Assembly (NCBI GenBank): GCA_008632985.1 | Contig: QPGO01000275.1 | Coordinates: forward strand, 1-64,000 | DNA: 64,000 nt | Direction: 5' to 3' | Source of the DNA: Psammoneis japonica | Lineage: Eukaryota | Shown: one piece after another, positions 1 to 62,476 of the stretch | Numbering within the stretch: position 1 is the stretch's first letter | Layout of the letters: each line of letters opens with the position of its first letter | Notes under the pieces: generated by a model | What the model was told of the DNA's origin: nothing | Database searches by the model: none | What the model saw: only the letters and a program-made list of their open reading frames with translations | Translations under genes and position numbers: made by a program

Positions 1-1438
1 AAGGTCAACTTGAGTGCCGACTTGGAACAAGCATGTGACACATGGCTTGCCTTTGGGTTCCAGGCTAATTGTGCACACAACCCTGCAATGCAAATGTGCA
101 ATGTCAATGAGTGCTTCTTTGCACTGACAACAAAGGAGTTGTTTTGATCTCATTGTGTCCAACAACCTTGTCAACTGCCTTTCTCACATCCGCTTGACAT
201 GATGTTGCAGATCTTTTGATGCTTTGCATCTTTTTTCGATTTTTCACGCACAGGGCTCCCCCCGTCTCCATTCAGAATCATTGCCACAATTGTGACACCA
301 TGGCGGCCAAGAACAAATTCATCAAGAATGCACCATCGCCCTGTCCATTTGCTGTCATCCTCTTTCTGGTGCTGTGCTTTTGTGACATTCCCATTTCTGA
401 CAGAGTCTTTGCCGTCACTCATCACCTGCATGTCGTCCGGCAAAACAAGCCAACAAACCCAACAGAGGACTGCAATTTGAGCCCAATGAGGAAAGGGGAC
501 GGCACCAAGGATTCTTTTGACATTTGCATTGGTTGTTGTGCTGCAGTGGGGGTGCTGTGACCTTTGGGTCTTCTCATGTGTGCGGCCTGTCTGCAACACA
601 CGCAACAAGATCACAACTCAGCTGCAGCTGAAAAGGCAGCTGCTGCCACTGCAGCTCCGCATCTCTTTTTGTTGCTGTCTCAGATCACAATGGAACATGT
701 TGTTGGATGTTTAGATTGTCGTGGGTGCATTCAGTGCTTGGCGCCAATTGGCTTTGGTGCGCACCGGCAAGCAGCTTTGCTGCGATGGATGACAGCAGCC
801 CACAAACAGTTTTTGAAACATTGAAATGCAAAGGTGGTTCAACTCGGGTTGGTTCTGGCAGTCCTCAATGCCACAATGTGGACCCACAAAACATTTGTCT
901 TTCTGCTGCTTCACATGATTCCAAACTGCCTGGACCAGAAAAAGCACCCGGTCCCTTCTGCAGAATGGAAGAGAGAACTGTTTCCTCTTGTAAAGCCAGA
1001 CAAAACAGACTGGAGAAACATTGCCATCTCCATCCCATTTGTTGCATTCAAGTGGGCCCCGTGCAAGGCTTGGATCCAAGGCAAGCTCTTTCTTGAGATG
1101 ACACAATTTGCCCTGGGAAACTTGAGCCAAAGGTTGTTGCATTTGTCATCAACTTAGTGCTTCAAAAGAAGAGATCATTTCCAGATGATGGAGAAGGGTG
1201 GACTTGCTTTTCACAGTCTCTTTTCTTTGCTCTGGCACAAAATTGCAAGCCAAAAAGCATCGCCTCCAATTGACCGTCCTCACTTTGGGTGATTGTTGTT
1301 GTGTGGCACGGTGTGAGTCCATTGCATCCGTCTGTTGAATGCAACCAACACACATCATCATCATGTGGAACCAAGATGTCGTTCACATAAAAACCCAAAA
1401 ATGTCCCACAGCACAAAGAACGCATTGAGAACATTGCA

Positions 1439-2858
1439 ATGTCAATGAACAAGAAAAGAGAAAGGATGGAGCTTGTCAAAGTCCAGGAGGTTGAAGGCTT
1501 TGGGAATGCTGTTGTTGCCCAGACAGCTTTGATTCCAGGCACTTTGGGGCTGGAAGTCTTTCAAGAACAGGCTTTGATTGTCTTCCCTCCTCACAACGGC
1601 ACAGTCTCACCACTGTGGGGACAATTGAGCCAAATGCTGCATGAGCAAAGCTGGCCGGACTGTTTGCACTTTTTGGAGCAACCCAAGGACATCCCAGAAA
1701 AGGTTTTGTCCTTTTGTGTTGACATGAAATGTGCTGACGCTCGTCGAGTGCAAGAGTTTGTGTCTGAACACGTCGAGTCTCAGGAATGTGCCAAGCGCTT
1801 CACTCATCTTTTCACGGTGATCAAATTCAACACTGTGGCTGTTCAACCAGTCAATGCTGATGGCGGTGGGCCTGGAAGCTGCAAGGGGCACAGTCTCTTT
1901 GAAGTCACATGTCGAATGGCACACTCATGTCATCCCAACTGTGTCTGGTTTAGTTTGCAAGACGGTTGCTCTAAGATGGTGCAAGTGATTGCACCCATCC
2001 AGTCTGGAGAGATGCTTGCTGTCAACTGCCTTGAGCAGAAGTGCTTGGAAAAGCCCATGTTCCTCCATTGAGCCAAGCTAAAAAGCACTAAGAACTTTGA
2101 CTGCAGATGCGATGGATGCATGTCATTGACTGGAGATGACTCCCAGCACTTCTGCTGCCACAAAGCATTGTAAAGGGTGCCATCTGGTGCAACAAGTTGA
2201 CATTGATGATCCTCCAGATCTGACTGCTTGTGATGTGTGTGGTGAAACAGCACCTGATGCCTTTCAGGAATGGATGCTGGAAAATGAAGAAGAGGCAAGC
2301 CAAAAGATTGACTGTGTGGATCGGGTTGCTGACTTGGGCACACCCGCAGACATTGCACATTCCATCCGATCACTCAAGCCTCCATGTGAACATCATGGGG
2401 TTGCTCTCCCAACACACCGGGCACAGGTTGATCTCTGCTTGGAACTCAATCAACTTTCAAAGGCTGTCATGGCACAATGCAAGTGGAGCAACTGTTGTTT
2501 GCGCATCCACGGAGAAAATTGTCTTGACGAACAAACTGGATTTGGGTGCAAATGCATGGGTGACTTGCTGGTTCAAGATGAAGGCCAACAGGCTGCCCGG
2601 AATGCATGTCAAAAAGCAGTGCAGGCCCTTCAAGTTTCTCGGGGAGGATCCAACAAGCCGCACATGCAATGTGCCATGAAAATCAGTGCAGAAGCATCGC
2701 ATCACGTCTTTGCCAACAGAATTGTCGGCAAAGTGCGGTCTCTGTGGTGTCCGAGCGACAAAGAAGTGCAGTCGTTGCAGAAACACAGTGCATTGCAACA
2801 GGGATCCCCAGCCAGTTCATTGGAAGGTGCACAAGAAGTTCTGCACTGAGACATCTTG
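1439..2858 (+). pseudogene. SMYD-like SET-domain protein with C-terminal MYND zinc finger (stops/frameshifts)
   Basis: SET motif 'SLFEVTCRMAHSCHPNC...IQSGEMLAVNCL' and post-SET 'FDCRCDGC'. At ~2730-2858 'CGLCGVRATKKCSRCRNTVHCNRDPQPVHWKVHKKFC' is a zf-MYND, with Tyr positions now C/H. Confidence 0.8.
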
Positions 2859-3283
2859 ATCAATCAAGCCTCTCCTCCCCCATTTCCCAGGTTTTGCGAC
2901 ATTTCTTCATTCTTTCCCAAATCGTAAAAATTGTACAAACATTGTACAGGAGATTCAATCACCAACCAGTTTGGTCTCAATGCTGTTTTCAAAGTCTTTC
3001 TGGCACACCCGTGCTCACTCCAGGTCCTCGAGCTGCACAGCATTCTCCGCAGATTGATGACACCAAGAAAACGAAGCTTTCATTGCACTGTTGTGATGTT
3101 GCAGCTTCGATTGCATCAGCCCCATGATGTGTTCATGCATGCTAAAGATGTTCCCCATGGACTGTCACAAGAACACTTCCAAACGACGAGTCTCTCCCGC
3201 TGGAGGAACAACCTGTGATGCAGTTGCTTTGCCCACAGTTGCCCGATTGCAAAGGATCTTTGTCTGGTGTAAAGTCGTCCCAG

Positions 3284-4031: not shown

Positions 4032-4385
4032 TGTGACAAAAATGCATGCATCGGTCATGTCAAACCTGTGTGACCCTGCGCATGTGCATTTGTTAGAAGA
4101 TCTGAAGACAGAGCAAGAGTGCCAAACCCACACGTAAAGACCAGCACAGAATCTACAATGAGACATTTTGAAGAAACTCTGGACATTTTGAAGAGACTCT
4201 TTTGATTGTCATTTTCATTTTTACACTGGATTAGCTCACAATTTCTCTGACGCAGAAGTTGTCATGCACCTTTGCCATTTACAGCCGCTCCTTCTGAGAG
4301 TTCACATTTTGGTTGATTGTTGCTTTCCAGCTTTCAACCACTGATTGGCCGGCAAATCCTTGCAAGATTTGGGTTCAACCCCACA
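4032..4385 (+). repeat. 5' LTR
   Basis: Begins tgtgacaaaaatgcatgcatcggtcatgtcaaacc and ends gggttcaaccccaca; aligns to 9527-9904. Confidence 0.9.
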
Positions 4386-4455
4386 CGCTTCCTCTGCAAC
4401 CTGCTTCACAACTTGTCAATTTCAAGCCAGCTGTTGACTAAAACCAGTCCCCTGA

Positions 4456-7400
4456 TGATGGTCAACACCCACACTTCTGCTGCTGCTGTGACATCTCCTG
4501 GGACTGCTCAGACTTCTGCATCCGCTGGAGCAAATGTTGCTGCTGGCACTGCCACTCCAGCTCCTGTTGGAGCTCCTGCCCCAGCTGCAGCTCCTGCTCC
4601 TGTCTCTTCAGGCTCCACTGGTGACACCTGTTCCTCCTGGAGGTGGCAGAGGACACGGCCCTGGTGGTGGTGGCGTGCCTCCTGCTGCACCCACTGTGGG
4701 ACCCATCTTCACTTTGACCACAGGTCAACATCAACCCAATCAGTTCATTGACTGTGGAACTTCCCAGGGACTCAAGCTTTTGCACAACGTGATTCAACCA
4801 CTGCCGTGCGAGTTCAATGGTGACTCTGAAGGCTTGAACAAATTTGCAGAAATGCTGATTCAATGCGCCACTTCCTCAGGATGGTTCACAGGTGGTGGGA
4901 ACATCATTGACATTCCTGACAGCAATGGCACAAATGGAAACTTCATCATGAACTGTGGTTGACTCACCATGGAGGATGTCAGGAATCATGTGCAAGCCTG
5001 CATGAATGGTCAAAACAGGCAAGCTCAAAATGCTGTGCAGATGGCAGAGTGCATCTCTCAGTCTCTCACTCCAGAAGCACGAGACAAGATCATTGCCAAA
5101 CATGAGCAATGCACCATCAATGGCAACCTTGTCAGAACATTGCTCTTCAAGCTGCTCACCCAAAAGGCCATTGTTGACACTCGTTCTGCTGCCAACTTCT
5201 TCCGTGAGAATCTGTTGAACCTGGACACCTGCATGGCTGGCGTGAACTCCGATGTCAAGAAGTTCAACGAGTGTTTCAAACTCAATTGTGAGGGACTGCG
5301 AGCTCAAGGTGAGAACTTTGATGACCTCAACACATTCCTGTTCAAAGGACATGAAGCAGCAAGTGATGAGTTGTTCATCAAGCACACGGCTCCCCACAAG
5401 GACAATTGTGATGATGGCAAAAACTGCTCACCTGAGAGGATCATGACACTCGCGCTCAACAAGCACACCAACCTCAAGTGACATGATCAATGGGGAGCAC
5501 TGTCTCCTGCCAAAGAGAAGACAGTTGCACTCTCCACAGAGACAGCCACCATCAAGGACCACAATCTCAAGTTGACCAAATCTTTTCTCAATCTGGCAAG
5601 TGCATGAGTCCCAAGAAGAAAGAAGACAAGGACAAAGGCGGCAAGGAGATCAGAGACAAGAAGAAAGGAAAAGGGAAGCAGGGAGACTCTGACAACTCCT
5701 GGAAAAGAGTTCCACTGCAGGACTCTCACCCTGCCAAACTTGTGAATGGCAAGAAGCATCATTTCAAAACTCACGGCAATCGCAAGCACTGCTGGTGTCA
5801 ATGCCACACCGCATGGGTCGTTCACCTGCCAGATGACAATGGACCCAACAGTTGTAGGTTGAGAAAGTCACAAGAGTCAGGCAACAATTTGCACTCCTCA
5901 AAGAGAGTTTCATTTGCAAGTGCACTTGCTGCCATCCTTGACAACATCCAATCTGAGGAATGAATGTTCTTTGGGACCATCATGAGGGCTCTCTGCACAT
6001 GGACATGCTGCATGAAGATGGCGGCAACTCTGTTCCTTGGAACCCTCACCATGGCCTGGACAGCTGCAACAATGGCACCTCTGCTGGTGTCAATGATCCT
6101 GGTTGTCACATTTGGCCTTCCTCACAAAACATTCAAGAAAGTCATGATGCCGACAATGACGTTGGGTGAGTGGATCATTTCACAAATCCCAGCTGATGCA
6201 CAAATGTTGCGCAAACACTTGCCATCAAACAAAAGCATGTGTTGTCCGAGGTGCATGACTGCAAAAAGAACAGGTCACTTGACAAAAGTGGCTGAAAAAC
6301 AAGCAACCTGCAAAGTGACCTTTACACCGGCAGCCAATGCTTCTGTGGTCTTTGTTCCAAGGCATTTTAGCCAACCATGAAACCAACGCCACTTGCAACT
6401 TGAATTCTTTCATGATTGACATTGACAACCATGCCTCTTGCACTGTGTCAAACAATTGCAAGCACTTCATTGGTGAACTCACACCAGTCAGGATGAAAGT
6501 GAGAGGCACTGGAGGAGAGCTCCTAAAGGTTGAAGGGAGAGGAATGCTGGAATGGAAAATTGAGGATGAGAATGGCGAAATCCATGCTTTCGCCATTTGC
6601 AAAGCACTCTGTGTGCCAAACTTACCTGCATGTCTGTTCTGTCCTCAACAATGGAGCTCACAGGCAAACAATCACAAGCCTGAACCCTGTGGCACCATCT
6701 CCGTCAACCAAGAAGACTGGTGCCTGCTCATGTGAGACCAAGAGAAGTCACACCCATCAACCAACTTGAAAGTCCGACTCCTGGATTTGTCCCTCAGCTC
6801 AAAGGGAGGCCTGCAAAACAAAGATGCAAGGCAGTGACAGTGTTTGTGGATCACCACAGTGGACTCAGCTGCATCCACTTACAATGATCACTCATCTCTG
6901 AGGACACCCTGAAGGCTGAGAGAGCATTTGAAGCCTTTGCTCACCAACATCACATCTGAATCAAACACTGCCATGCCAACAATGGAAGATTTGCTGACAA
7001 CACATTCATTCAAGACGTTGAGAGAGTGGGACAGACGATTTCCCACTGTGGAGCAAATGCTTGTCACTGAAAAACGGATTCGCGACCTGCAAGAGCAAGC
7101 ACGCAAGCAATTGCTGCATGCAAAGGCAAGATGGCCATCAGCAATTGAATTGAAATTGTGGCCAAGTGCCTTGCATTGCACAAATGAAATCAGGAACTCC
7201 TCACCTGATCACACCAATGGTTCCTTGCTGATCAAGATGTTTGCTTCCATCAAGGCAGCACTGAAGATCAAGGCTCACCACACTTTTGGATGTCCAGTCC
7301 ATGCTCTGAACAATGGATTGCAAAGTGGAGGATGCATTACAAAGTGGAGCTCAAGAGCAAGACTTGGAATCAATCTTGGTCCATCACCAAGACACGCTGG

Positions 7401-9490
7401 TTTGGAGTCACCAGTCCTGAATTTGGAAACAGGCCTGATGTTGCCTCAATTTCATCTGCAATGCAACAACTTTTTTGAAACAGTCAGACCATCTGCTGGA
7501 AATCCTCCAACATTTTCCCAATGGCAGACCACAGCAGGCTTCAAGACACAAGCTGAGCCAAGTTGATTCAACACATTTTGGCAATCAGAAGAGTCAATGG
7601 AGCCCACAGCAGCTCAAACACCAAGACTGGAACCGGAACCTGCAATTCTGCAACAACATGCTCTTGCACAAGAAAACATGGGCAGCCAAGTGTGAGCAGA
7701 TGCGGTTGCAAATGATGACCAACAACTGCATGGCCGAAAGCCAGGAGCAACAACATGCTCAAGGTGTTGCATCGTGTGCTGCTCACCACAAAGAGCACTG
7801 TGACGCAATGCATGAGGGGGATTGTTGTCTCCAAGATGACATGGACCGATCCCCATCATTTGTGACTTGATCCAACCAAGACACCATGCACTTTGACCAA
7901 GCTGTGCATGCACCTGACCAAGATGAATTTACAATGGCAGCAGTCAAAGAGGTCAATGACCACATCAAGCACAAACACTTGAGATTGATTCCCAGAGATC
8001 AAGTTCCAGAGGGAGTCAAGGTCTTGCCTTCAGTTTGGTCCATGAAACACAAGTGAGACATCAAAACTCAAAAAGTCCACAAGTGGAAAGCAAGATTGAA
8101 TGCACACGGTGGAAAGCAGGAACATGCAATCAACTGCTTCAACACATGCCGCCCAGTTGTAAACTGGCACACTGCACGATTGATCCTCATCCTGTCCATC
8201 CTCAACAGATGGCACACACGCCAAGTCAACTTTGTCCTTGCCTCTCTGCATGCTGACATTGAGTGTGAGACATGCACATGGAATTGCCCAAAGGAATTGA
8301 GACAAAGTGTGGCAATGGCAAGACTCATGTGTTGCAACTGTTGAAGAACCTGCATGGACAGAAGCAAGCAGGACGAGTTTGGGGAGAACATCTCAAAAAA
8401 GGATTGCTCAGAATTGGATTCAAACAATCCAGTGTCAACAAATGCCTTTGCCACCGACACAATGTGCCATTTGTGCACTGTGTTGATGATGGCATTTTTG
8501 CTTCTCCTGACAAAGATGCCATGGACAAAGCAATTCTGGATGTCAAGAACAAAACCTTCGACATTGATGATCAAGGGAGCATTGAAGATCACCTTGGCAT
8601 CAACATTGAAATGCTTCCTGATGGTTGCACAAAACTTGCACAACCACATCTCAACCAGCAGTTGCTGCAAATGGCGAACTTGCCAAAACGAGCAGCCAAC
8701 AAATCCACTCCAGCTCCTTCTTCCAAGATGCCACATCAAAACAAGAACAACTTGTCATTTGAAGGGAGCTTCCATTGTTGAGCTGTGATTGGTGAGCTCA
8801 ACTTCCTTGAGAAGTGCACTCAACCCAACAACACTTGTGCGGCACATCAAGTCGCTTGGTTTTCTGAAGACCCAAAATGAGCGCACGGCAAAGCTGCACT
8901 GTGGCTTTGCAAGCACCTTTGCAACACTGCCCAAGAATGAATCACACTTGGTCCAATTGAGGACAAGTCATTGGAAGTTTATGTGGATGCCAACTTTGCA
9001 GGCAATTGGAACAAGCTAACTGCAACTGTGGCACAAGCACCACCGAGTCAAGAACAGGTCATGTCATTGCATTTGCAGGATGTCCAATTGCATGGTCATC
9101 CAAGTTGCAAACTCAAGTGGCACCAAGTGTGGCTGAAGCTGAGCTCATCACGCTTTTGGAAAGTCTTCGAAGTGCCACCCCAATTGTGAACATTCTGAAT
9201 GAGATCAAGGGAAACGGTCATCCTGTCATCTCAGACATGCCCAAGGTCCATTGCAAGGCATTTGAGGACAATTCTGGTGCTCTCAAGACAGCATGTTTGC
9301 CCAAGATGTGACCACGGACCAAACATTTCAACAACATGCTTCATCATTTCAAGGATCACGTTCACTGGGGAATTGCTTCAATCTGTCCTGTGGACACATG
9401 ATGTCATCAGGGAGACATGTTCACAAAGCCTCTGCCACAGAATGACTTTCTCAGACACAGAAAGTTTCTTCTCTGCTTGTGGATTGTCAG
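4456..9490 (+). pseudogene. Copia gag-pol (protease, integrase, RT, RNase H), many stops/frameshifts
   Basis: PR 'IDIDNHASCTVSN'; IN 'VFVDHHSGLS...KHCHANNGRFAD...EKRIRDLQEQARKQLLHAKARWP'; RT 'KWKARLNAHGGKQ', 'LLKNLHGQKQAGRVW', 'FVHCVDDGIF'; RH 'VYVDANFAGNW', 'RTGHVIAFAGCPIAWSSKLQT', 'FEDNSGA'. Confidence 0.92.
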
Positions 9491-9526
9491 ATGCGTCACT
9501 GTTCCACCCAACACTGTTGAAGGGAG

Positions 9527-9904
9527 TGTGACTAAAACACATGCATCGGTCATGTCAAACCTGCATGACCCTGCATGTGTGCATTTCTGAGAAGATCTGA
9601 AGACAGAGCAAGAGTGCTGAACCCACATGTAAAGACCAGCACAGAATCAGCAATGAGACATTTTGAAGAAACTCTGGACATTTCAAAGAGACTCTTTTAA
9701 ATGCAATTCAAAATGCTCACAAAGGATCACTTTCATTTTTACATTGGATTAGCTCACAGTTTCTCCAACGCAGAAGGTGTCATGCACCTTTGCCATTTCA
9801 CAGCTGCTCCTTCCAAGAGTTCACATTTTGGTTGATTGTTGCTTTGCAGCTTTTAACCGCTAATTGGCTGGCAAAACCTTGCAAGATTTGGGTTCAATCA
9901 GACA
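9527..9904 (+). repeat. 3' LTR
   Basis: Begins tgtgactaaaacacatgcatcggtcatgtcaaacc and ends gggttcaatcagaca; ~24 bp longer than the 5' LTR. Confidence 0.9.
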
Positions 9905-9909
9905 TCCAA

Positions 9910-12375: not shown

Positions 12376-12574
12376 GCCAACACACAACCAAAAACATCTA
12401 CCCTCAGTTCTGCCCTGCAGAGAGCAGCACTCATCCCAGGGGGAAGAAGACCATGCTGCAGCAATCAGCACTGAACCTGCGCAACAGTGGTCAACCTGCG
12501 TAAACCATGCAAGAAGTTGAAGCCAAAAAAACAACTGGCCTTTGAACGCCCACAGTTCCACTCAGTGCTCATTG

Positions 12575-13460
12575 CAGCAAAGGCACGAATGCCATTGTGG
12601 ACCAATGTGGCAGTGATGCAAATGATGTTTTTGTTGGATTTGTTGCTGACCCTTGCCTTTTGGGTGTTTGATGACTTTGACAGGTGGGAGGAAGCACAAA
12701 GCACCGCCGCGTTGGCAATGGGGCATTGATGTGTCCACCCGGCACTCGGGCAACAAATGTGAGAACTCCATTGTGGGCTGATGCAGCAGTGATGCAAATG
12801 ATGTTTTTGTTTCATTTGTTGCTTGACCTCATCTCTTGGGTGTTTGATGACTTTGACTGGGTGGAGGGAAGCACGAAGAGCCACCGCATTGGCAACAGTG
12901 GGGTTCACAAGTCCACCCAGTGCTTTGACAGCAAAGGTGAGAATGCCATTGTTGATGAATGGGAGTGTGACAACAATGATGCTTGTGTTGGAGCTTTTGA
13001 CAAACCGTTTTTCTTGGGTGTTTGATGACTTTGACCAGGTGGGGGGAAGCACAAAGTGCCACCACGTTGCCAATGGTGGGGTTGACAAGTCCACCCAGCA
13101 CTCAGACAGCAAAGGTGAGAACACCATCATGGACCAACAGGAATGTGACAACAATGATGCTTGTGTCAGATGTTTGCTGAGCCTTTTCTCTTGGCTGTTT
13201 GATGACTTTGACAAGGAGATGGGCAGCCACAGCACCACCGCATTGCCAACAGTGGTGTTGACAAGTCCACCCAGCACTCAGAGAGCAAAGGTGAGAATGC
13301 CATCAGGGGCCATTGGGAATGTGACAACAATGATGCTTGTGTCAGATTTTTGCTTGACCTTGTCTCTTGTGTGTTTGATGACTTTTGCCAGGAGATGGGA
13401 AGTGCGCAGCACCGCCGCATTGTCGACAACAGCATTGACAAGTCCACCCGGGTGGTGCCG
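12575..13460. repeat. Tandem array, ~175-180 bp unit, ~5 copies, downstream of the Crypton ORF
   Basis: Recurring gcaaaggtgagaatgcc...tgtttgatgactttgac...ttgacaagtccacccagcactc at ~12576, 12751, 12931, 13109, 13284; degenerate relatives at ~10995-11600. Confidence 0.85.
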
Positions 13461-13564
13461 CATTGGCACTCGGAGCATGGGTGCCAAGGCCACCACAGAC
13501 TGTGAAGTTGTAAAAAAAGGTGAGAACAAAATTTGCATTTTGCAATTTTTGTCACAATGGATTT

Positions 13565-15770
13565 GTTGAGTCCTCAACTCCAGGTGCCCACCTTGTTGCT
13601 TGTCCTTTTGCATTGCTCGCAGGATGTTGGTTGTGGATTCACCCTCACAATGCACAGAGCACACTTTGTCAATTGCAACCTCGGCAAGCATCCCTGATGC
13701 AACCACAGATTGAATCTGGTCCCAGAATGTTTTTCTCTTGGAGAATGTGTGCTTGACTTGACCTCGCTTGGCAGGAGCAAACAAATGCACAGCTTTCATT
13801 CCACCAACACCAGCCATCCACTCATCCCACAGAATGTGGAATGTCTTTGGGCCTCGTGTCAATTGGGCATTGTTGTCCCTCTGTCCTCTTTCCTCAGCAC
13901 CTTGACCGTCTTGAGCTTGCATCTGTTGTTGTCTTGGGCATGCGATGTGACCAGGCTGGCTGCTGACTCTGTTGAGGGACGAGTGCACTTTTGTTGGAAG
14001 CCCTGTTTTGTGTCCCTTTGCAGGGCAGTCAAGTCATTCTTCATGGTGCACTGAGTCTGTTGCACTTCATTCAGCCCTGCAAGAAGGCAGGCTGCCATTT
14101 GTCCATCTCAGGCTTGTCTGTCACTCGATGACTCAGTGCTGCAATTTGCCATGTTGTCACCATTGGTCTGTTTCAGCTTCATCAATGTGCAAGGTGTCTT
14201 CAACATTGCACAGAATGAGCTGCACCTTTGATGCTGGATTTTCATTGTTGCCAAGCAATCCTTGAACATCATCAGCATGGGCATCCTTGATTCTCTGCAT
14301 GACACCCACAGTGACACTGTCACACATTTCTTCATCACAGCTGTGCCAAGTGCTTCTGCCATGCTGGATGGAAAATGTGCAGATGTGTTTGGCACCACAT
14401 GCTGCAACATCCACTCCTTGGTCATGCAGCAGCCCCACTTCAACCAATTGATTGGACCACCAATGCAGAGCAGCCCAGCAACCTTGGCATCAGGCCAAGG
14501 CAGGTCCACATTTGTGCACTTGTCCTGCTGCTTCTTTGACTGTTTCCACCTTGCACAACTGTTCATTTCATCCTTGTTTGCCCCTTTTGATTGAGCCAAA
14601 GCAGTTGAAAGTTTCCTTGTAGAGTGAGTGCCAAGCAATTCCACAACCAACCATTCAAATTGATCTGAGTTCAGATTTTTCTTCAAAGCTGAGCAAGCTT
14701 TGCGGTTTGCTGCCTTGGGATTGTGGGTGCCAAAATTGAACATGAGCTCTCTGTTCCCACCATGCCTTGCCATTGATGTCTCAAGGTGAAGCCCCAATCC
14801 AAGCAACACACAATGCAGCAGATGGTCTGCACCAAAAAGAACTTGGAGTTGGCACTGTTGTTCCTCCTGAGCATTCTTTGACCAATTCAGGTGCATTCTA
14901 AGAGCAAAAGGGAATTGTTGGGTCACTGGTGGCCTTGCGCTCTGAGCTTTGCATGTGTCATCAAGTCATGCAATCAAGTTGTGAGTGACCTTCAAAAGAC
15001 CAGGAATGCCAAATTTGCATCAAGGTCAGAGGAGCCATCCAACAAATGCAAGATTTGTTCATGCTCTTCCTTCCCAAGCCTGCCACCTCCATTTTGGTTG
15101 TTGCATTTGTCAAGTCATTCACAACCACTGATTGTGTTGGGTTTCCCCATCCAACTTGATCATTCCATGCCATGTGCTTGTTTGGCATGAAGCATGACAT
15201 CGCCTTTTTGCAAAACATCAGTGAGTTTGCTTGTCCACTGAGCAGCTTGTCATTTGGCCCAGGATTGGGCTTTCCAACAGCCTTGACTCCAAACCACTCA
15301 CCAATCTCCTTTGGTGCAATTTTTGTCAACACATTGTTTGGAAACAGGTGCGGCAACTGGTGTGTGGTTTTGTCCTGATGTGACATGAATTCTGCAAGGA
15401 CATTGTGATGTTGCAGGATTGAGTCCGGGACGTTGATGCAATGAGCCAGGCTTGTCAAGGCAAACTCAGGCCTGTCTTCTGAAGCTCCTTTTTCTTTTTG
15501 CCTTCTTTTGTTTTGTGTTGGTGATGGAGGCAGTGGCATTGGAGGTGGTGTCGGAGGTGGCAGCGCTGGAGTGAGCAGCGCATTGCGTGCATCCTTGTTC
15601 ATTTTTAGTCTGGGCAAAGAACAAGGTGCAAGTCGGCCGTCTGCTTTCTACAAGGAGCACGGATGTTTTGGTTGCACTCAGGACACCTGTGGGCACTGCT
15701 TGCCACACCACCAAACATGCAGTTGGCATTGGCACATCTGCCGGGATTGTTTGTGTCATTGATGCTCATG
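13565..15770 (-). pseudogene. Crypton tyrosine recombinase with C-terminal GCR1_C-like domain
   Basis: 'KKAMSCFMPNKHMAWNDQVGWGNPTQS', 'LNWSKNAQEE', 'LGTHSTRK' (HxxR), 'ARWK...QDKCTNVDLPWPDAKVA', C-terminal 'PKTFHILWDEWMAGVGGMKA...FSKRKTFWD...AIDKV'; Cys-rich N-terminus. Confidence 0.82.
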
Positions 15771-16229
15771 GTTGAGACCGCATTGGCAGAACTTTGAGAG
15801 CTCTTTATGTTGACATGAGACATGAGACATGAACGGAAGAGCAAGATCATGCAAAAACAAGCACGCAGGGTAGAAGTTTTGCTTCCAAGAATTCTGCCCT
15901 CCCTTCCACCTCAGCAGAAAAAACAGAGAATGTGTGGTGGAATTTTTGCAAAGAACGGTGACTGCAGTGACAGTTTTGCATGTGTCAACTCCACTTTCCA
16001 GTTGAAAAATGCTGCTTGGGTGGAATTTCAGAGGTGATGGCAGAGTGTTGCAGTGTCATTGGTCAGCAGTTGCCAGGTTGAAGCTTCGCGCAAATTTGTG
16101 CATGATTCAGGTGCATGTGCTCCACACCTTGATGTGGGCATCACGCCATTTAGTTTGTTCATTCATTTGCATTCATTTGATGCAATTTGCACTTTTTGGT
16201 TTTGCCAAGTTGGGCACTCTCTCTAGCCA

Positions 16230-45130: not shown

Positions 45131-45269
45131 CAGGGCACAATTGTGGGCTTGTCTGGACCACCAATCACATGGCTTTTGAGTCTTGTGCTGGCTGCTTTCT
45201 TGGGCAGTGCAGCTTCAACAACGTCCACCTCTCACAACTGACTTTGACCCAAATCTTCATGATCCTCAG

Positions 45270-49229: not shown

Positions 49230-50723
49230 TCAGCAACAAAATGTTTTGCAGTGAGTGCAGTTTAGCGTCATTTTCTGTTGATCAGTCAGCTGGTTTGAGA
49301 GCCACAAATTGGTGCCTTTTTCCAAGAATGAGTCCAGTGTGTGATGCTCCAGCTCTTTCTTGCACTTGTTGAGATGCCTTTTGTGTTCCTGCAATTTGTG
49401 GGAGTGACATCCAAAAACCAACTTGTGCATTGTCAGCAGTTTGGGGTGTTTGGGACCAAGTTCCACATGAACACCAACACAGACACAGTCTGGCACTTCC
49501 ATTCCCTGTGGCACTGCATCGTCATCAATGGCAATCCTCAAGTGAGCAACTTTTCCCATTTCTTGCAGCTTGCCAAAGGTGTCTGCAAATCACACCTTGC
49601 CAACATGAGGTGAAGCAAGTGCAATGAGATGAGTCTTTTTGTCAATGCTGTTGCTCACTGCCGTGGGAGTTGCTGCCATGGCAGCCATGGCAGCCATGGC
49701 ACCTCCCAAACTGTGACCTGCAAAACAAAGAGAATGCCCCTCATGCCTTGGATCCTTGAGAAAAGTCAAAATCTCATGAACAATCTTGGTGAACTTGATC
49801 TCTCTGTTGTTGCCTTCTGGTTCAAACAAATGCTGGTAAAAACCACAATGACTGTGATGTCATTTCAACAAGCAACAAATGAGTGGCATCACTGCAAGAT
49901 GGGAAATCAGCAAGAACAAAGCACATTGTGGACAACAGATTCTCTCCATGTGCATGTGAGACTCACATGGTGACATTGTCAAAATCATTCAGCACATCCG
50001 CAGGATTCGGAATGACCGCCAACTCCTTGGGCATGTGGCGAATGTCTCGTTCATGGGCCTTGAAATCTTGTCCCCAGTCTCTCATGTTGATGCTTCCCCA
50101 AAAGGCAATGGTCAGTTGCTTTGGTGCAGGATTCCTTGCCATCCATGGATGGGTCTTGATTGTCATCTGTGAAATCTAAACTGGTCATCCAACACTTCAT
50201 GTGTTGCTTCTTCATCTTCTTTTGAATTGGAGTTTTTATTGACAAGGTGCTGCAAAATTTCTAAATCAAATTCGGGGTTGCATTTGCAAAGCAATTTCCA
50301 TCTGGATTTTTTCAACCAGTCCATGTTGCGTTTGAGCCACTCCAACATTTCCGATGCCATTCTTGGAGTTGTGCAAAAGAAATTAGGATCGTCAAGTGCA
50401 TTCTTCCCATCAACAAGGTTGCTCCAATTGTTGAAGAGTGCAAAATCTTGAATCAGACAGGACACTGCAAGCATCAGATGCATTTCACTGAAAAGCAAAC
50501 GTTTTTCTTGTTGTGAATCATCATCAACACTCTGTTGTAAATTGTCATGAGTTTCTGCCAAACAAGTTGTTGTTTCATCAACATTGGTGTTGTTGTTGCA
50601 CTCCTCAACTGCATGTGCAGATTCCATTGGTGTGAAAAGCAATGAAAACAGGAAAAGTGCAAGCAGGCCCACTGGTGGAAACCACTGGGGCCTTTTGGTC
50701 ATGGGCATTGTGCATGGTGGCAT
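49230..50723 (-). pseudogene. Class 3 lipase with N-terminal signal peptide
   Basis: 'LTIAFWGS', 'DWGQDF', 'SLCFAGHSLGGAMA' (GxSxG), 'ASPHVG', 'HLRIAIDDDAVPQ'; hydrophobic N-terminus; stops and frameshifts. Confidence 0.85.
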
Positions 50724-54502: not shown

Positions 54503-57500
54503 TGGGACAAATGCGGGGATGACCCACCTTGAGGCAATTGCAGAACTGCGTGCCAGATTGCAAGATGACTCACCTTTCTGATTTTTTTTTGCACTGGAAA
54601 CTTTGTGCACGCCACACGCATCATTGCAAAAAATTGGTTGTCGCAATGACTGTGACAACAGCGACGTGTCCTTGACTGTTTGAGCATCACAGTCATTTGG
54701 TTTGTTGACTGTGAGAATGCACTCAGTTGTGAAAGTCCCCGGGTGAAGCCTCCGTTAGAAAGCAAAACATCGCGCCAATGCCGAGCTCTGTTTTTCAACA
54801 ATCATTTGATGCATTTGATCATGGAACAATTGAGAGTTCATCTGGGAGACTTTCTTGATGCACTCATGTTCCAAGGAGTGTCATTGACAGCAAAGTCCTT
54901 CTCCAGGAGCGCCGCAAACATGTTGTCGTCATTGTCGGCATTGAATGGCCGAGCAAATTGCAAAAATGGCACAACCATCATCTCTGTCTGACATTTCGCT
55001 GCTGTGTGCAACTCCTGCACATGCCCCAAGCTGTGCCAGTTAGCCTGGAAGGTGCTGGGATGTGTTGCGATCCATGGGAGGTCTTCTCTTTCCCTCTTCC
55101 ACACCACTTGCAGACCTTCCAGTTGGGAGTGCTCGCTCACTCCTGGATGGCCATCCCACATGGCTCACAGCAGATGTCACTGGATCCACCAATCAAGAGC
55201 TCGCACTCGCGCATGTAGAATGCGCACTGTGACACTCGTGTGAAAACCGCACGGTTTTAAAAAATGCCTGGATTCAGCCAATCAGAAGCTCCGAAATCAC
55301 CCTCTCACACTCTCATCAGCAACAAATCTTCACTGGGTGAAGCCATAAAAAAGAAGCTGCCGGCAATGCTGAGAAAGACGACACTGCTGTTCGATGACCT
55401 TCAAATCATCACAACAACCACAGCACTAGACAGCAGAAAAGGAGGCTGCAAGGTCAGTGCTCGGAGAAAGAGAAGTGACCAAAGTTGTCTGCTGAGAAGA
55501 GCAGAGGGCTGGTGGAAGAAAGAGGAGTGCTGCGCTGGCAGAGAAGAAGTGCAGCTGGCCAGCTCTCAGTGGTGGAATTGCAAGAGCTGAAGCTCCTTGC
55601 AAGGGTGGAAAGATGCCACAGAAGAACTTGGCCATGGCAATGATGGTGGTGGCTTTTCTGAAAAAGAAAGCAAGGAGATGAACAGTCTTGGGGGAGTCAT
55701 GGTGCAATGCCTTGCAGCTGTTTAAGCTCAACTTGGGTGCCTTTGGCTTTTGGCCTGGGGTGCTTTGCGGAGCAGCCCCAGCACACAAAAGATTTGTTGG
55801 CAGCAGGAAGCTTGTTGGCAGCCCATTTGGGGAACCATCCTGCTGCTGAGAAGTTGTGGCATGGCTTCCACAAGTCAGGTGGGGTCCAAAGGTTGCTTCA
55901 TTTCCCCCTCACACCACAAAAAACAATGCCCAAGTTGACAGCCCTCCTGGGAACTGGTGCGCCCTGCCACACGCACGGAGGTGGGTGCACAAGAATGGCA
56001 GATGTCACACAAGGGTGGCACCTGAGTCAACAGGGTAGTTGCTCCTCATCTCAAAGCTCCTGGATTGTGAAAAAAAGGGCCAGCAAAATAGCCTCCCTTG
56101 AAGAGTCAGGCAAAAAACTCTGCCCTCCATTTTGCTGCCTTTGTCAGTGCCAAACAATGAACTCATGTGGTTCATTGACATCAGAGGTGCTGCCTTCAGC
56201 TGCAATGTGCAGACTTTGCCAGCAGCCCCATGCCAGTCAATCTGGAGCAAGAGAAAGAGCACAAGCACAGAAATGCAGGTGGCAATGAGAGCCTCAAAAG
56301 ATGACATCTGAAAAGCTTGCCACTGACGACATCAAGCACAGTGGGTCATGACAGAAACACTCACAAACAGCACTCACCACAGTGCCAGCAGACAGCCCAG
56401 CCAGACACATGCTGCACACTTGCATTTGTGCTCTTCACTGCCATGCCAGCTTGAGCTCTCAAACAAGAGAGGGCTGCTTGCTGGCATGGTCTTTAGAGTG
56501 GAGCAATGTGACATGACAGCAGAAAATCAAGGAACTCTGTGGAGTTGCTCTCATGCAGAAATGCTTTTGCTTGACAAAGCTGAGAGCAAGCATCACAGCA
56601 CAGGCAAGAATGATGACAACAGCACTGCTCACAGCACAGGCAATGATGACAACAGTGCTGAAGCAGCTGTGCTGGTGAAAGTGCTCTCACAAGCAGCAAC
56701 TCTGCCACATGTGTTGCAGCCAAGTCTCAAGCAACACACTTTTGTTGAAAGGGCTCAACTGTGCCACATTGTTGGCCATCTTGTGCAATGCTCATGTCCA
56801 GTCTTCACACAACACAAGCTGCCACATGGTGTGGGGTGTGCCAATTGACAGGGAGCCAAGCTGAGCTGGCTTCACTTGCCCTTGACTTTGTTTTGAGAAA
56901 TGCAGCTGCTCTTGCTGAGCAAGACATTGAGGGGTGCCATTGCAAGTGTGAACAGTGCCAGCCACACCTGTGCACACGGTGCTGCAGCGCTTCTTCTTGA
57001 GCTCTGAGATTGTGATGAGACAACTTTGTCTTCCACACAACAGGCGTGAGCTCTGCACTGTTGAGTGTGCTGAGAAAAAAGATGAGCTGCAACACAAAGG
57101 GGGTGAGCAACCGGTGTGAATGACAAGAAGCAAGGCAGCTTTTGCCCACTTTCAGGCTGCAACTCTTTTCACTGATGCACTCGCCAGAACAAAAAGGGCA
57201 TTGAGTGCTTCTCACGGGGGAGATTCTGAGCTGGCGCCGGACTGTGCCACAGCTTTGAAAAGTGACACACATTTGTTGACAGCCCTGGAAATGACATTTG
57301 TGTCATTTTTTAAGTTGGATGAAAAACAACACATGCATTGTCTGAAGTCAATGACATGGAAAACTGACGTTTCAACTCAACTCACACGTCAAATGTCTCA
57401 TGGCGTTAAAACATTGGCTGGAATTGCATGTGAATTTGTTGATTCATTGCAGTGCGAACTGTTTGAGTCAGTGGTCAAGAGGCAAAAAAGGGAATGAGGA

Positions 57501-57774
57501 ATCCCGAAGGACAAGCCCCGTTGAAGGTGTGACGCGATTTTTTAAAAATGCTCGGCTCTGATTGGCTGAGGAGATCTGTGTGATGCAGTTTTTTAATCAG
57601 TTCCTAAAAACATCGTAGACTCGGGTCGAGCTCCACAATCAATCTAAAATCATCTAAAATGATCGGGAGCTCCGGCGCTAAAAGGGTCTAAAATGGAGAT
57701 GTTGAAAATGGAACGCCAGTGTCCACAAAACGCAGCATTTTTGAACGCTTTTGTTGCAACGGGAAACAACAGAG

Positions 57775-57850
57775 TCTCTTTTCTCTTTTTTTCTCTTTTC
57801 TTTTCTCTTCTTTCTTTTTCTTTCCTTTTTCTCCTCCTCTGTTCCCTCTC
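57775..57850 (+). repeat. Polypyrimidine (CTTTT-like) low-complexity tract
   Basis: tctcttttctctttttttctcttttcttttctcttc... Confidence 0.85.
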
Positions 57851-60289
57851 GGTCTAAAATGCGCTCCAGCAACATGGTATAAAAACCTCCCGCATTGATT
57901 TCCATGGGCACAACATCCCGTAGAAACCATTCTATAATCAACTTTATCTAAAATTGAAAAAATTAATAAATTTGGTGTTCGCAGAAACTTGACTAGTTCG
58001 ACTGCTCGTTTTTGCCCGCTCGCCCACGCACTGAAACACGAGGGAAGTCGACAAACCATGATGGAAAAGAGCCGATGCGGCCCCGTTCTTGAAAACCACC
58101 TGTCAGTGGCTAAATTAATTTTGCAGACTTGTTCATAATGCCACAATTGAGTGCATGTCAAAATTGATTTAGCCACAGGGAGAAATTGAAGAAGATGTTG
58201 TCTCGAACAGCTGCAGGCACACATTTCTCCAGAACATGTCAGAGGCAAATCGACCTTGCTCAGTTCTGCTCATTCCATCAAAAGGGGGCACCAGGTGAAT
58301 CCCTTGAGCATGTGTTGTTGTGCCCACCCCTTGATGTTGAAAGGACGGTTTTGACTTTTCTGCAGCAACAGGTGTCGGCAGCAAGTGCTGTTGGACACGA
58401 AGAATTGGCCTGGTGATGAGAGCAAATTCAAGACGCGCTGCTGTCAATGTCAGAGAATGTAAGAGAACAAACAAATGATTCAAAGGTTGGTGAGATTGTC
58501 GAAAACTGGGACAAGGAGAAAGCAGCGAATTCATTTCAACTGAGCAGAGGTGGGCTTGCCGCCGCAACATTTGGGTGTTGTTCTTGTTTGTTCTTGTCGC
58601 CCTCTCGGTCTGAATGCAACATAAAACAATTGGAGCAACAGATGTTTGCATTTGTCTTCACCCACTTTGTCACAATGCTCAACGTTGCAAATGACATTGC
58701 CACTCTGAAGAGACACGAGAGCGAGCGGCATGAGAGTGAGGTTGACGACGAGCTAACTTCCCCGGGACTTTCCCACTCTGGTCAGCTTAAACTCACCTCC
58801 AATGTTCAGTGAAAATGGCAAGAGCATTCCCAATTGACTTTGTGTTGCCATCGACAAGTGTTTCTTGAAACAGTTGTCGTCAGTTCCGGCCGACGTCTTT
58901 GACATTGCGATGGGAGCGGCGACGGTTGCGAGTTTTATTTTTCTGAAATTTGAGGTTTGTCTTCTGTGATCATGTTGTGGACAAACAAATGTTGTGCGAA
59001 CACCACCATCGCTGGCACGATGTTGTGCCCATGAGTGGTGAAGACCCAGCACAAAACCCCCGTAGAAAAATCGTGCACGCCTTGTTCGGTCTGGTCGGAT
59101 CTTTGCACGGGAGCGATTCGTACACCAGAAGCATGCCAGCGGGGGGATGGACAGGCAGGCACAATCAGGGGGGCACCAGAGGTGCACAAATCGTCTTGTC
59201 GTCTGTGCGTGTGCTTCCTTGCGCACAATCAATGCGCGAATGCGTGAATGACAAAACGATGAGGTGGCTCACGGATGCAGGTGGGCTACGAAAGTGTCTG
59301 TGATGACGTGCTGCACGTGAGAGAATTTTCATGGGGCAAAGTTCCAAATTTTTGCAAATTCGCCGCGACGCAACGCGTGCCAAATGACAAGTTTGGGTCC
59401 ACATTCTGCCATGCCCGACAACACAATCACTTTTGCTGACATCAGACACTCCGTGCAATGTTCCAAGGTCACAGTTGCTGGCACATGATCCAAGCCAATG
59501 CAATTGGATCGAATGCAAAAAGCACTTTGCCGACATTGCCAAGTGCTGCATTGACGCACAAATGCCGCATCCGTTGTTGGGTTGTTGTTGCGTTCCAGAT
59601 GGGACGAAGAAATCTGCTGTTGCATTGAGAGCATCATTTGTTCATCTGATTGGGGAGGGTTCAAAGGAAAAGGTGAAATGGTCATTGCAAGGCATCATTT
59701 TTACCTCACATTGATGGAGAGGATGGGAACAAGGCAGTCCATGCGCCTCAGTGCGGATGATGGAGGGCATGTCCAGTTAGAGCCTTTGCCTGGTGCTGGA
59801 GGGGCATTTGGCAACATTGCTGCGCCCATGGATGCAGACACTGCCCACAGAATGGGCATTGTGCATGATTCTGAATGCACTTTCCTCCGGTTTGAGGCTT
59901 GAGACTTTGTTTCGCGTCAACGATGGAGAATGTAGAAAAGGTGGATCGTAAGTGCCACAGAGCGAACGCACCGACGGATTGCATGGCAATGTTCTGGACC
60001 GCCTCTCACCATTTTGCCACTTGTTTGTAGACACTTGGGTTGTCACTGCCTCAGGAGCTGCATCAAGTTTGACAGAGCCGGCAAGTCACGGACAAAACAG
60101 CACAAAAAATAGAGAAGTGGACAGGGCTGCTTGCAAAGCGCAACTGTCCTCACTGTTGAGGCTGGCTTTCAAGAAAGATTTCACGGGACACAAGGGAGTG
60201 CTGGAAGCAGTTCGTTTGTGTTGTTCTGGATTGGGAATTGAGAATTTTGGCTTGGCAGTGCAGCTCTGCTCTAGTCTAAACTAACATCT

Positions 60290-60450
60290 GCATGCCTTCT
60301 CCACAAACTCCCGCACAGCATGAGTTTCTTCACTGGCAAGGACGTGGTCTTCAGGCTCATCATGTTGGAGCATCATCCACATGCCCTCAACACAGTCACA
60401 GGCTTTTCCCTGATCATGCTTTGCATCAATGTTTCCCAGGTGCAAAGAAG
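60290..60450 (-). pseudogene. gmd: GDP-mannose 4,6-dehydratase internal fragment
   Basis: '[51 protein letters not shown]' matches the GMD consensus LxLGNxDAKRDWGxAxDYVExMWxMLQxDEPxDY/FVxAxxExHxVREFVEK. Confidence 0.85.
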
Positions 60451-61199
60451 ATGAAGAGCCTGCAAGGAGCCCCACTCCGGATCACACGAACAGCACGAGA
60501 AACCAATGATGAAATGAGTCAACTTGACAAAGGAGCCATTGGATCTCGCAGAGTGCTTTGAAAGAACCGGCAGCGCAAACTAAGAAAACGTTGTTCGAAA
60601 GCGAGCCAGTGACGTTCTGTTATTTTATCGGGATGTCATTCCCAAACCGCAGCCGGAAACCTTAACCACAACAACACAAGCATCTTTTTGCTGCACTCCA
60701 GTCCACACCCAAATCATAAGTCAGCCACCGGTGCCATCCTCATGTTGCCCGGGAACAGGCGCAGGTGAAAAATTGACGTCCGTTGCTGGCGCACAATGTC
60801 GATTCCAGAGAACGTGTGCAACAGTGAGTGCGATGAAACAATCAAGAGCCTTTTCGTCTTCATTGTCCAAAAAACATTTGTTGCACGTGCGTCGCGAGTC
60901 GTTGATGATTTCCGGGAGGAACACACCAGCAGGTGTGCATCAAAAGCCATGGATGTTGCATTGCGGGAGGGATTGAAGGCAGTGGCGAAACGGGCGAACA
61001 AAAAAGAGGATGTCAGCAAAGGAGAGTGACAACAACAATGCACCTTTTCAATCTTGCCTTGCTGTTCATTGCTGTGCATTGTCAAGAAGTGACAAACAGC
61101 TGTCCCATCTCATCCGCAAAAAGGATGGAAAACCACGGACACTGACACCACCGCGCACGCACACACGACAGTCCATCCAGCTTCAACTGGAGCAGGTCC

Positions 61200-61915
61200 A
61201 TTGACAATGCCTGTGGCAATGCACAAGAAATGAACAACACAGTCTGTGAGAATTTATCTTCTGCATGCTGTCAAAACCGGCAGGGCTCGCCCACCATTTT
61301 GCTTCGCTCAAACAACAGATGCAACCAAGCCACTTCAGAACAGATCAACTGACAGATGCTTCCTGTGGCAATGGCACAAGAGAAACAGACAACAGAGTCC
61401 GTGAGTGTGTGTCTTCAACATGCAGCTGTCCAAGCCATGAACTGTAAAAAGCAGAGAATGCGAGCTCACAAGATGGGCGCACCGTTTTTTGAATCACCAG
61501 AACAACCGATGCAACCCAAGCAATTCGGATTGAATGAACCAACAGATGCTTCCTGTGGCAATGGCACAATGAACAGATGACAGAGCCCGTGAGAGTGCAA
61601 TGGTTCTTTGACATGTGGCCATCCAAGCCATGAACCGCAAAAAGCAGAGAGTGCGAGCACGTGAGAACTGAGTGCCGTTTTGCTTCGCCCAAACAACAAT
61701 TGAAACCAACCCAATTCAGACCCATCAACTGACAGATGCTTCCTGTGGCAATGGCGCAACAAACAGAAAATGGAGTCCGTGAGAGTGCTGCTTTGATTTG
61801 GCCAAACCACAAACTGCAACAACAGGAAAAAACAAGCTTGTGAGAACTGCGCACCGTTTTGCATCACCCAAACAAGTCATGCAACCAAACCCACTCGGAT
61901 TCGATCAACCCACAG
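61200..61915. repeat. Tandem array, ~190 bp unit, ~3.5 copies
   Basis: acagatgcttcctgtggcaatggc at ~61352, 61542, 61732; degenerate copy at ~61203. Confidence 0.85.
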
Positions 61916-62476
61916 TTGTGACACTGCCGGACCCCTTTGACATGTTGTAACTTGGGAGATGTTTGGTGCCGGGAACACACAATTGCCGGGCAAAATTCAT
62001 CCTGAGAGAAGCCAAGAGGTCGTAAGTCTAAATTGCACATTTTCTCCACAACCAACAGCCCTGCTGCACTTTGCTTGCCATCACAAATGAAGCAGATGTT
62101 GTAGATGGAGAAGGAAGCAGTGAGTCGAGGTGTCACAGCTCTGCTTTCGAAAGAGAGCTGTGTGATGTGTTGATGATGCGTCGTGTTGTTGTGTGCAGAT
62201 TTTGGCGATCGAACCGCTTCTCGCCCCATAAAAATTCTCTCAGGTACGGCACGTCGTCACAGCCGGAAGTACCGTCGTGATCCACCTCATCGTTTTGTCG
62301 TTCGTGCGCGCGCTGAGTGTGCGAATGCGCGTGTGCGAACGACAACAGACGATTTATGAACCTCTGGGGGGCACTGTGAACACCATCCAGGCTAACACAC
62401 TGCCAAACTCAAACACAGACAAAAAAACTCCCTCCGACACAACTCAAATCTGCAACACACAATGATGTGCGCCGTC

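Follow-up and report, generated by a model that had tools for sequence, protein, structure and literature searches.

The window analysed here is the whole stretch of 64,000 nucleotides at positions 1 to 64,000 of contig QPGO01000275.1. Nearly all of it belongs to a single domain (1..62150, continuing past the window's left end) in which the dinucleotide TpA is depleted and TpG and CpA are enriched. The domain gives way at a narrow edge to a flank of normal composition (62231..64000) and is interrupted by an island of near-normal composition (57401..58200). Within it lie a Copia-type long terminal repeat (LTR) retrotransposon (4032..9897, plus strand), a non-LTR retroelement resembling long interspersed nuclear elements (LINE-like; 20969..26729, minus strand), a repeat in three copies and scraps of cellular-type genes. 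We consider it likely that this silent, transposon-rich domain has undergone regionally confined hypermutation of TpA to TpG or CpA, in place and on double-stranded DNA.

Positions 1-62000 contained 344 TA dinucleotides, as compared to 4211 ± 51 expected from 200 mononucleotide shuffles, an observed/expected ratio (o/e) of 0.08 and a decrease of approximately 12-fold. TG and CA were in excess over the same positions (o/e 1.76 and 1.74) and CG was reduced (0.33). AA (1.21), TT (1.22) and AT (0.88) showed no depletion, so that among the dinucleotides of A and T the loss is specific to TA, and TC and GA stood at 1.01 and 1.04. For the entire 64-kb window, the ratios were 0.09 for TA, 1.74 for TG, 1.72 for CA and 0.35 for CG. 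A preliminary description of this DNA had reported that TA is nearly absent over approximately 62 kb while TG and CA are in excess, and these values bear it out. The sliding-window check that it had proposed, carried out within the window, gave a TA o/e of 0.03-0.19 in each 2-kb bin across 1-62000 and of 0.45 in the last bin (62001-64000). In 1-kb windows, Rho_TpA was at most 0.26 in 62 of 62 windows of the domain, with a median of 0.07; it was inversely correlated with Rho_CpA+TpG (Spearman -0.55), and TA loss was correlated with CG loss (Spearman 0.58).

This composition has a marked effect on reading frames. On both strands together, the stop triplets TAA (278) and TAG (222) amounted to 500 occurrences versus 3203 for TGA, and their scarcity makes the region rich in long mechanical open reading frames (ORFs). 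These frames are almost free of tyrosine, as had been noticed earlier: 113 of 143 ORFs (stop-to-stop, at least 120 aa, within the domain) had no Tyr at all, and the ORF at 19340-20386 had 0 Tyr in 349 aa, versus 9 in 278 aa for the flank ORF at 63167-64000.

The direction of change was read from residues conserved among homologs. The Copia-type element has LTRs at 4032-4378 and 9527-9897 and matches to the Pfam families Pol_BBD and RVT_2, and its pol region (approximately 6060-9494) is nearly full-length with a few frameshifts, as determined by tblastn with 10 full-length homologs. Eight full-length polyproteins were aligned for the test, two others being excluded, P0019 because its composition is odd and P0025 because none is more distant; the alignment gave 651 consensus positions with at least 75% agreement among at least 6 homologs. 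At the 27 positions with a Tyr consensus, the element had Tyr once, Cys 11 times, His 10 times, Ser and Leu twice each and Phe once; 474 of the 624 conserved non-Tyr residues were retained. The motifs in which the preliminary description had seen Tyr replaced are present, namely LHGQKQ at 8350, CVDD at 8479, DHLG at 8587 and RTGH at 9051. Arginine remained at 22 of the 39 positions where it is the consensus, with 12 changes of CpG type (His 4, Cys 3, stop 3, Gln 2), Gly at 1 and 4 positions not itemised. At 11 of the 40 Asp-consensus positions Asn was found, and in 10 of these 11 a C precedes the codon, as for CpG to CpA changes across the codon boundary.

The LINE-like element, whose limits are those of its tblastn span, is depleted of TA with its CpG nearly intact. 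Its ORF at 22275-23252 had 397 homologs at E<=0.001, the best only 35% identical; one long homolog, P0037, bears an APE-type endonuclease domain (Exo_endo_phos), and a weak zf-RVT match was found in the window. Of the 150 homologs listed, the 59 that reach 500 aa were used, which gave 376 conserved positions. The 15 Tyr-consensus positions had become Cys (7), His (4) and Phe (3), with a single Tyr remaining, and 297 of 361 non-Tyr residues were retained. Arg persisted at 20 of 28 consensus positions, 7 of the others being CpG-type changes and 1 a Gly.

Pooling the Tyr positions of these two unrelated retroelements (n=42) gave 2 Tyr, 18 Cys, 14 His and 8 other residues, so that Cys or His occupied 32 of 42, with non-Tyr retention of 76-82% across both elements. 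TGY and CAY codons are each one transition away from TAY, and Tyr codons contain no CpG; the ancestral dinucleotide was therefore TA, as the preliminary description had argued when it set CpG decay aside. These results show that TA was changed by transition to TG or CA. The same substitution was seen in a pseudogene fragment of GDP-mannose 4,6-dehydratase (GMD) at 60284..60481 on the minus strand (PDB 6q94_B, E 7.2e-17; Pfam GDP_Man_Dehyd, E 1.1e-16). As reported earlier, this fragment has Cys where human GMD has Tyr; Arg to His and Trp to Gln were the other changes relative to the human protein. The replacement of the conserved Trp by Gln (TGG to CAG) requires two transitions, a possible path being TGG to TAG followed by TA to CA. 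Where TA is strongly hypermutated, TG may be turned into CA, and CA into TG, by way of ordinary G>A or C>T changes.

Intact relatives differ from the window in this respect. The preliminary description had suggested looking for Cys and His in intact family members, and in 25 of 27 database homologs at most 3 of 33 Tyr-consensus columns carried either residue. Among 79 metagenomic loci encoding a related Copia reverse transcriptase, found by a scan that relied on conserved peptide patterns and is biased towards unmutated copies, none had Rho_TpA below 0.41 and the median was 0.68. Two public predicted proteins, both homologs of Copia pol, do share the pattern. P0015 (NCBI, 919 aa) had 6 Tyr, 13 Cys and 6 His at 28 Tyr columns, and P0019 (from an ENA source, 1481 aa) had 13, 12 and 5 at 32. 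Neither is among the nearest relatives of the window's Copia, and a close kinship was rejected. As judged from these protein sequences, the Tyr to Cys or His signature is present elsewhere in public data, where such copies have been called as intact genes.

Changes on the two strands were equally frequent. There were 18 cases of Tyr to Cys, which reports A>G on the sense strand, and 14 of Tyr to His, which reports the same change on the antisense strand (binomial p = 0.60); the earlier statement that either strand is affected thus holds. This balance fits a process on duplex DNA and is hard to reconcile with reverse transcription of edited sense RNA.

The timing of the changes was examined in repeated sequences. 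The two LTRs of the Copia element differ at 34 of 347 aligned positions. Seven dinucleotide columns were TG in one LTR and CA in the other, versus 0 GT/AC control columns; of the remaining columns, 2 were CG in both LTRs, 5 were CG versus TG or CA, 3 were TA in both and 3 were TA versus TG or CA. A model with CpG decay only, fitted to these counts by hand arithmetic, predicted approximately 1.6 discordant columns. Since LTRs are identical at insertion, the 7 observed columns show that several TA sites changed in place after insertion. Differences outside any pyrimidine-purine (YR) dinucleotide numbered just 6 in 179 columns, and TA o/e in the LTRs was 0.21-0.22. Taking the ancestral Rho_TpA to have been 0.54-0.68, the range of intact relatives, we roughly estimate that turnover at TA sites exceeded the background by a factor of some 30-70.

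The three-copy repeat (copy A, 16223..19126; B, 37494..40361; C, 45284..46546) was found by blastn self-comparison. Copies A and B are 84.6% identical, and either is 75-76% identical to C. The 2.9-kb A-B pair had 83 columns discordant between TG and CA versus 7 control columns, and 502 columns that were concordantly TG or concordantly CA. The informative classes among three-copy columns, (CA,CG,TG) with 6 and (CA,TA,TG) with 4, indicate that CpG decay and TA change both contributed to this repeat. At 44220-47277, the public sequencing run described below yielded contigs (depths 45-56) with 16 and 26 differences from the window per 1.4 kb, mostly transitions and including adjacent TG/CA double changes, for example at 44827/8, 45219/20 and 46376/7. 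These variants may stem from paralogs or from another haplotype in which the same sites were resolved differently.

The two kinds of decay can be told apart. In the block at 22-28 kb that holds the LINE-like element, Rho_TpA was 0.08-0.21 while Rho_CG was 0.71-0.83. CpG-type changes had affected 12 of 39 Arg positions in the Copia element and 7 of 28 in the LINE-like element, versus Tyr losses at 26 of 27 and 14 of 15 positions. TA loss thus outpaces CpG decay and proceeds independently of it. CpG decay as the sole cause was rejected, since 40 of 42 Tyr were lost from codons that have no CpG and the 22-28 kb block keeps its CpG.

The right-hand end of the domain is sharp. The preliminary description had placed it near 62200, in agreement with the edge found here (62100..62230, approximately 150 bp wide). 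Per 100 nt, TA numbered 0-2 up to 62200 and 1-4 thereafter, CG rose from 1-5 to 12, and TG plus CA fell from 20-23 to 10. In the flank, o/e was 0.47 for TA and 0.89 for CG, and TA o/e in its non-coding part (62230-62877) was 0.35. The flank contains a 179-nt tandem array (62477-62906), a spliced transcript and an Ulp1-like ORF on the minus strand (63167..64000; Pfam Peptidase_C48, E 3e-07), which is open and extends beyond the window; searches of both length classes of a collection of 5.8 billion proteins gave no match to this ORF. A contig from run X2, which derives from the same sample as run X1, joins 62877-63081 to 63179-64000 and thereby defines an intron (63083-63179) on the plus strand that is canonical (GTGAGT...AG) after a 1-nt shift. 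A spliced transcript therefore runs through the flank from 62877 to 64000, in antisense orientation to the Ulp1-like ORF, and plus-strand ORFs there are at most 64 aa long. X2 is cDNA-like at this one splice; it has almost no exact cover in 44001-62000, which we did not use as evidence of silence. The intron has 9 TA in 97 nt (Rho_TpA 1.11), as compared to a domain mean of 0.54 per 97 nt. That nearly neutral intron DNA 1 kb outside the domain is undepleted argues against a genome-wide neutral bias, and TA loss in the window is regionally confined.

The island within the domain (57401..58200) had o/e values of 0.36 for TA, 0.90 for CG, 1.24 for TG and 1.03 for CA. Its contig depth was 231, approximately 6-fold that beside it (approximately 36). 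It contains seven CTAAAA motifs, five of them in the form TCTAAAAT, a long CT-rich tract and one TATAAAA. Clear terminal repeats, a target duplication and Rfam or tRNA matches were not found in the island, so that a transposon is unsupported; possibly the island was inserted more recently, or is a protected element. A Pfam 'Conotoxin' match to a low-complexity ORF in the island (E 7e-4) was under the family cut-off and was taken as chance. The depleted stretch at 55340-57340 had a contig depth of approximately 36, versus 35 in the flank, and this single-copy-like depth means that present-day repetition is not required. The earlier proposal of a repeat- or heterochromatin-directed process is thus upheld as far as confinement to a silent, repeat-rich domain is concerned, but not as regards induction by repetition.

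Other features of the window were sought by tblastn with database homologs and with a Pfam scan of all stop-to-stop ORFs that reach 75 aa (144 + 150 + 88, in all 382). A series of four long minus-strand ORFs at 12468..15647 includes one, taken to be Crypton-like, with a GCR1_C match (13281-14033, minus strand; E 5.9e-06); it has 5 TA in 3180 nt and overlaps a 176-nt tandem array (12575-13449) found with Tandem Repeats Finder. Selfish DNA in the domain thus comprises the Copia and LINE-like elements and this series. Scraps of cellular-type genes are also present, namely a DUF7733 fragment (561..821, plus strand; Pfam), an ankyrin-repeat ORF fragment (40431..41006, minus strand; Ank_4, E 4.2e-09), a class-3 lipase gene fragment (49593..49859, minus strand; Lipase_3, E 8.2e-10) and the GMD piece. 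Two families named in the preliminary description were not recovered. For Harbinger, in which DEAY was said to have become DEAC, no DDE-type Pfam match at E<=1 was obtained in three minus-strand ORFs around 31451 (31250-31753, 31366-31797 and 31973-32503), and no MYND domain, in which YC was said to have become HC, was matched in the 382 ORFs (Pfam, E<=0.001). General Pfam scans of the window ORFs gave no viral hallmark or capsid domain, a giant-virus origin not being searched further, and Rfam and tRNA scans gave 0 matches. Tandem arrays of 176-190-nt units occur at 12575-13449, 29324-29686 and 61297-61790 in the domain and at 62477-62906 in the flank. As a possible before-and-after pair, the two arrays that bracket the edge were compared and proved unrelated (score 31 versus a null of 28.6 ± 2.9). 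At 51338-54672, the summed depth of X1 contigs was 3,838 to 31,040 versus approximately 35 for single-copy DNA, with many internal joints, which marks it as a repeat family of very high copy number whose copies have been rearranged. Position 47698 holds one N, the sole ambiguous base of the 64 kb.

The preliminary description knew of no precedent for such a process, but one has been reported. Full-text literature searches for TpA-specific hypermutation gave a single preprint, from 2026, that of Mettrop et al. on mutation-accumulation lines of Bigelowiella natans (B. natans; bioRxiv 10.64898/2026.01.13.699255). There, 231 of 302 new single-nucleotide mutations fell in integrated giant-virus and virophage regions; all of these were at TpA, and nearly every one was A>G/T>C. 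The rate was approximately 1000-fold above background in some lines only, and for viral DNA that had integrated it was approximately 6e-7 per site and generation. The B. natans genome contains 124 clusters of 1-kb windows that are TpA-depleted and enriched in CpA and TpG, and 324 low-TpA gene models that are enriched in reverse-transcriptase and DDE domains (10.64898/2026.01.13.699255). The window resembles this system in that only TpA is affected, the products are TpG and CpA, and the affected DNA is regionally confined in clusters of the same composition. When the cluster cut-offs of the preprint were applied, 55 of 64 1-kb windows passed both, and those inside the domain that failed did so on CpA+TpG alone. 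The two systems differ in their targets, which in the window are retrotransposons and gene scraps, with no viral hallmark gene in the Pfam scans, and in extent, since depletion in the window is close to saturation and spans 62 kb or more (median Rho_TpA 0.07, versus 0.45 in the nucleocytoplasmic large DNA virus region of B. natans). Strong CpG decay is superimposed in the window, and the process is known here from sequence, whereas in B. natans it is known from new mutations (10.64898/2026.01.13.699255). The unmatched flank ORF, together with the 35% identity of the best LINE homolog, weakly suggests a genome without public annotation, and so perhaps one other than the annotated B. natans assembly; we hold B. 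natans to be a rather unlikely host.

Repeat-induced point mutation (RIP) of ascomycete fungi likewise disables transposons permanently and in place by dinucleotide-specific transitions, but it runs in the opposite direction, as the preliminary description had pointed out: RIP converts CpA to TpA, enriches TA and creates stops, whereas in the window TA has been erased 12-fold and CA has increased. Decay of 5-methylcytosine at CpG yields the same products, TpG and CpA, and is itself present in the window (CG o/e 0.33), but it cannot remove TA or alter Tyr codons, is slower and is nearly absent at 22-28 kb. ADAR, APOBEC and Pol-eta also make clustered, context-dependent transitions and are used, or have been proposed, as defences against selfish elements. 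ADAR acts on RNA and one strand and APOBEC causes C>T, whereas the window shows changes on both strands at TA only. Pol-eta, one of the candidates put forward in the preliminary description, is disfavoured, since its WA>WG errors would mutate AA too, and AA and TT stand at 1.21 and 1.22.

The process that we propose would convert TpA by transition at the A or the T, that is, by A>G on either strand, tens of times faster than other substitutions occur and until its targets are nearly exhausted. Ordinary decay of CpG to TpG or CpA would proceed in parallel but more slowly. Because a change from TA to TG or CA destroys TAA and TAG and never creates a stop, inactivation would be purely by missense, with essentially all Tyr lost, and the elements would be left full of long false ORFs. 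We infer that this is an enzyme-driven defence guided by a chromatin mark. The agent may be a DNA-acting adenine deaminase like TadA or ADAT2, an attribution that, within this explanation, we consider plausible but a little short of an even chance. To our knowledge, tRNA A34 is always preceded by U33, which would fit a strict TpA requirement of such an enzyme. An ADAT2-like deaminase has been proposed as the candidate in B. natans, without an assay (10.64898/2026.01.13.699255).

The same targeted process could instead act on thymine, a TET/JBP-type oxygenase modifying T in TpA to, for example, 5-hydroxymethyl- or 5-formyl-uracil, which would mispair with G and give T>C. TpA is self-complementary, so that A>G and T>C on the opposite strand are indistinguishable from sequence, and the symmetric outcomes (18:14) suit this chemistry equally. 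In dinoflagellates, 5-hydroxymethyluracil occurs preferentially in TpA and TpC, and 5-formyluracil mispairs with G. We nonetheless regard the thymine route as unlikely, since TC is not depleted in the window (TC 1.01, GA 1.04) and the B. natans preprint proposes, as a candidate, adenine deamination (10.64898/2026.01.13.699255). A much smaller chance is left to editing of element transcripts from A to I by an ADAR- or ADAT-like enzyme, fixed by reverse transcription and re-insertion. It would be in keeping with the fact that two of the mutated elements are retroelements, with the many LTR changes common to both LTRs, and with the tendency of such editors to favour U before the edited A (10.64898/2026.01.13.699255). 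Editing of sense RNA would, however, yield Tyr to Cys only, and Tyr to His is as common (14 versus 18); the LTRs diverged at TA-type sites after insertion; the GMD and lipase pieces and element-free stretches are equally depleted; and a Copia element in which YVDD has become CVDD is incapable of copying itself. Moreover, ADAR tolerates A at the -1 position, and AA is undepleted here.

Two further alternatives dispense with a targeted process. The change from TpA to TpG or CpA could be an organism-wide neutral bias, with old junk at equilibrium while genes and young sequence keep their TA. The domain does consist of decayed elements, the flank is itself low in TA (0.47, and 0.35 in its non-coding part), and TA and CG depletion are correlated. 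We hold this to be improbable, since the intron in the flank has a Rho_TpA of 1.11 and the edge is only about 150 bp wide. The LINE-like block, moreover, is otherwise young (82% of non-Tyr residues retained, Rho_CG 0.71-0.83) but has lost 14 of 15 Tyr, and the LTRs have 6 non-YR differences in 179 columns yet a TA o/e of 0.21. Likewise, the rate varies approximately 1000-fold among regions of B. natans (10.64898/2026.01.13.699255). Least probable of all is a sequencing or assembly artefact, as might arise if a modified base in TpA were systematically miscalled. Modified bases can give systematic consensus errors on some platforms. The public sequencing run X1, from 2019, contains 74% of the sampled words of 54001-64000. 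Between its contigs (depth 32-37) and the window there were 0 differences over the depleted stretches 54674-55092, 55270-57604 and 58786-59360 (419, 2335 and 575 nt), and likewise 0 over the flank at 62877-64000. This match excludes a consensus or polishing artefact, although X1 is possibly from the same sample as the assembly. An artefact would also have to account for the spared 0.8-kb island and the sharp edge, for sites that are every one cleanly TG or CA with a choice that varies between paralogous copies, and for the same Tyr to Cys or His pattern in P0015 and P0019, unrelated proteins from other sources.

Several observations weigh against regional, in-place hypermutation of TpA as we have described it. 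X1 may come from the very sample that was assembled, so that its support is not fully independent. The case for regional targeting depends on one island and on a flank of 1.8 kb whose own TA o/e is rather low (0.47). Of the converted LTR sites inferred (approximately 23, a rough estimate), just 7 are discordant, as compared to about half if each site had been resolved independently and at random; part of the LTR change may predate insertion, or the direction of conversion may depend on context. In the A-B repeat pair, a simple model places approximately 72 of the 83 discordant columns on approximately 180 ancestral CpGs, and the counts mean that most TA loss there is older than the duplication, the ancestor of the pair having had most of the TG/CA excess by then, so that timing differs between elements. 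The repeat comparisons alone would not prove TA ancestry. Finally, the flanks of the surviving TA sites in the domain are strongly uneven (ATAT 0, ATAC/GTAT 5, ATAG/CTAT 8, GTAC 9, CTAA/TTAG 101). This bias may mean that an A with a pyrimidine on its 3' side is the preferred target, although ancestral context frequencies may differ; at the polarised Tyr sites the flank effect was not significant (p = 0.19), and no protected motif around the remaining TAs of the domain was found beyond the flank bias.

The window is thus a saturated, transposon-directed example of a recently described kind of process. RIP and APOBEC editing have their mirror image in targeted A:T>G:C hypermutation of DNA, for which the window adds a saturated end state, in which retrotransposons and captured gene scraps are affected and not viral inserts alone. 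It also adds that the two strands are hit equally, contrary to RNA editing, that the process outruns CpG decay, and that it stops within approximately 150 bp of transcribed DNA. In practice, the loss of TAA and TAG leads gene finders to call long, false proteins that are free of Tyr and rich in Cys and His, two of which are already in public collections; this stop-codon consequence is absent from the abstract, Results, Discussion and dinucleotide Methods of the B. natans preprint (10.64898/2026.01.13.699255). Should the host be an organism other than B. natans, it is possible, and we suggest it tentatively, that erasure of TpA in targeted chromatin domains by a DNA-acting deaminase of the ADAT/TadA type would be a wider eukaryotic defence against transposons and viruses, acting purely by missense and seeding false ORFs such as P0015 and P0019. 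In that case, the phenomenon would no longer be a curiosity of a single species, and comparative genomics could seek the enzyme that co-occurs with it.

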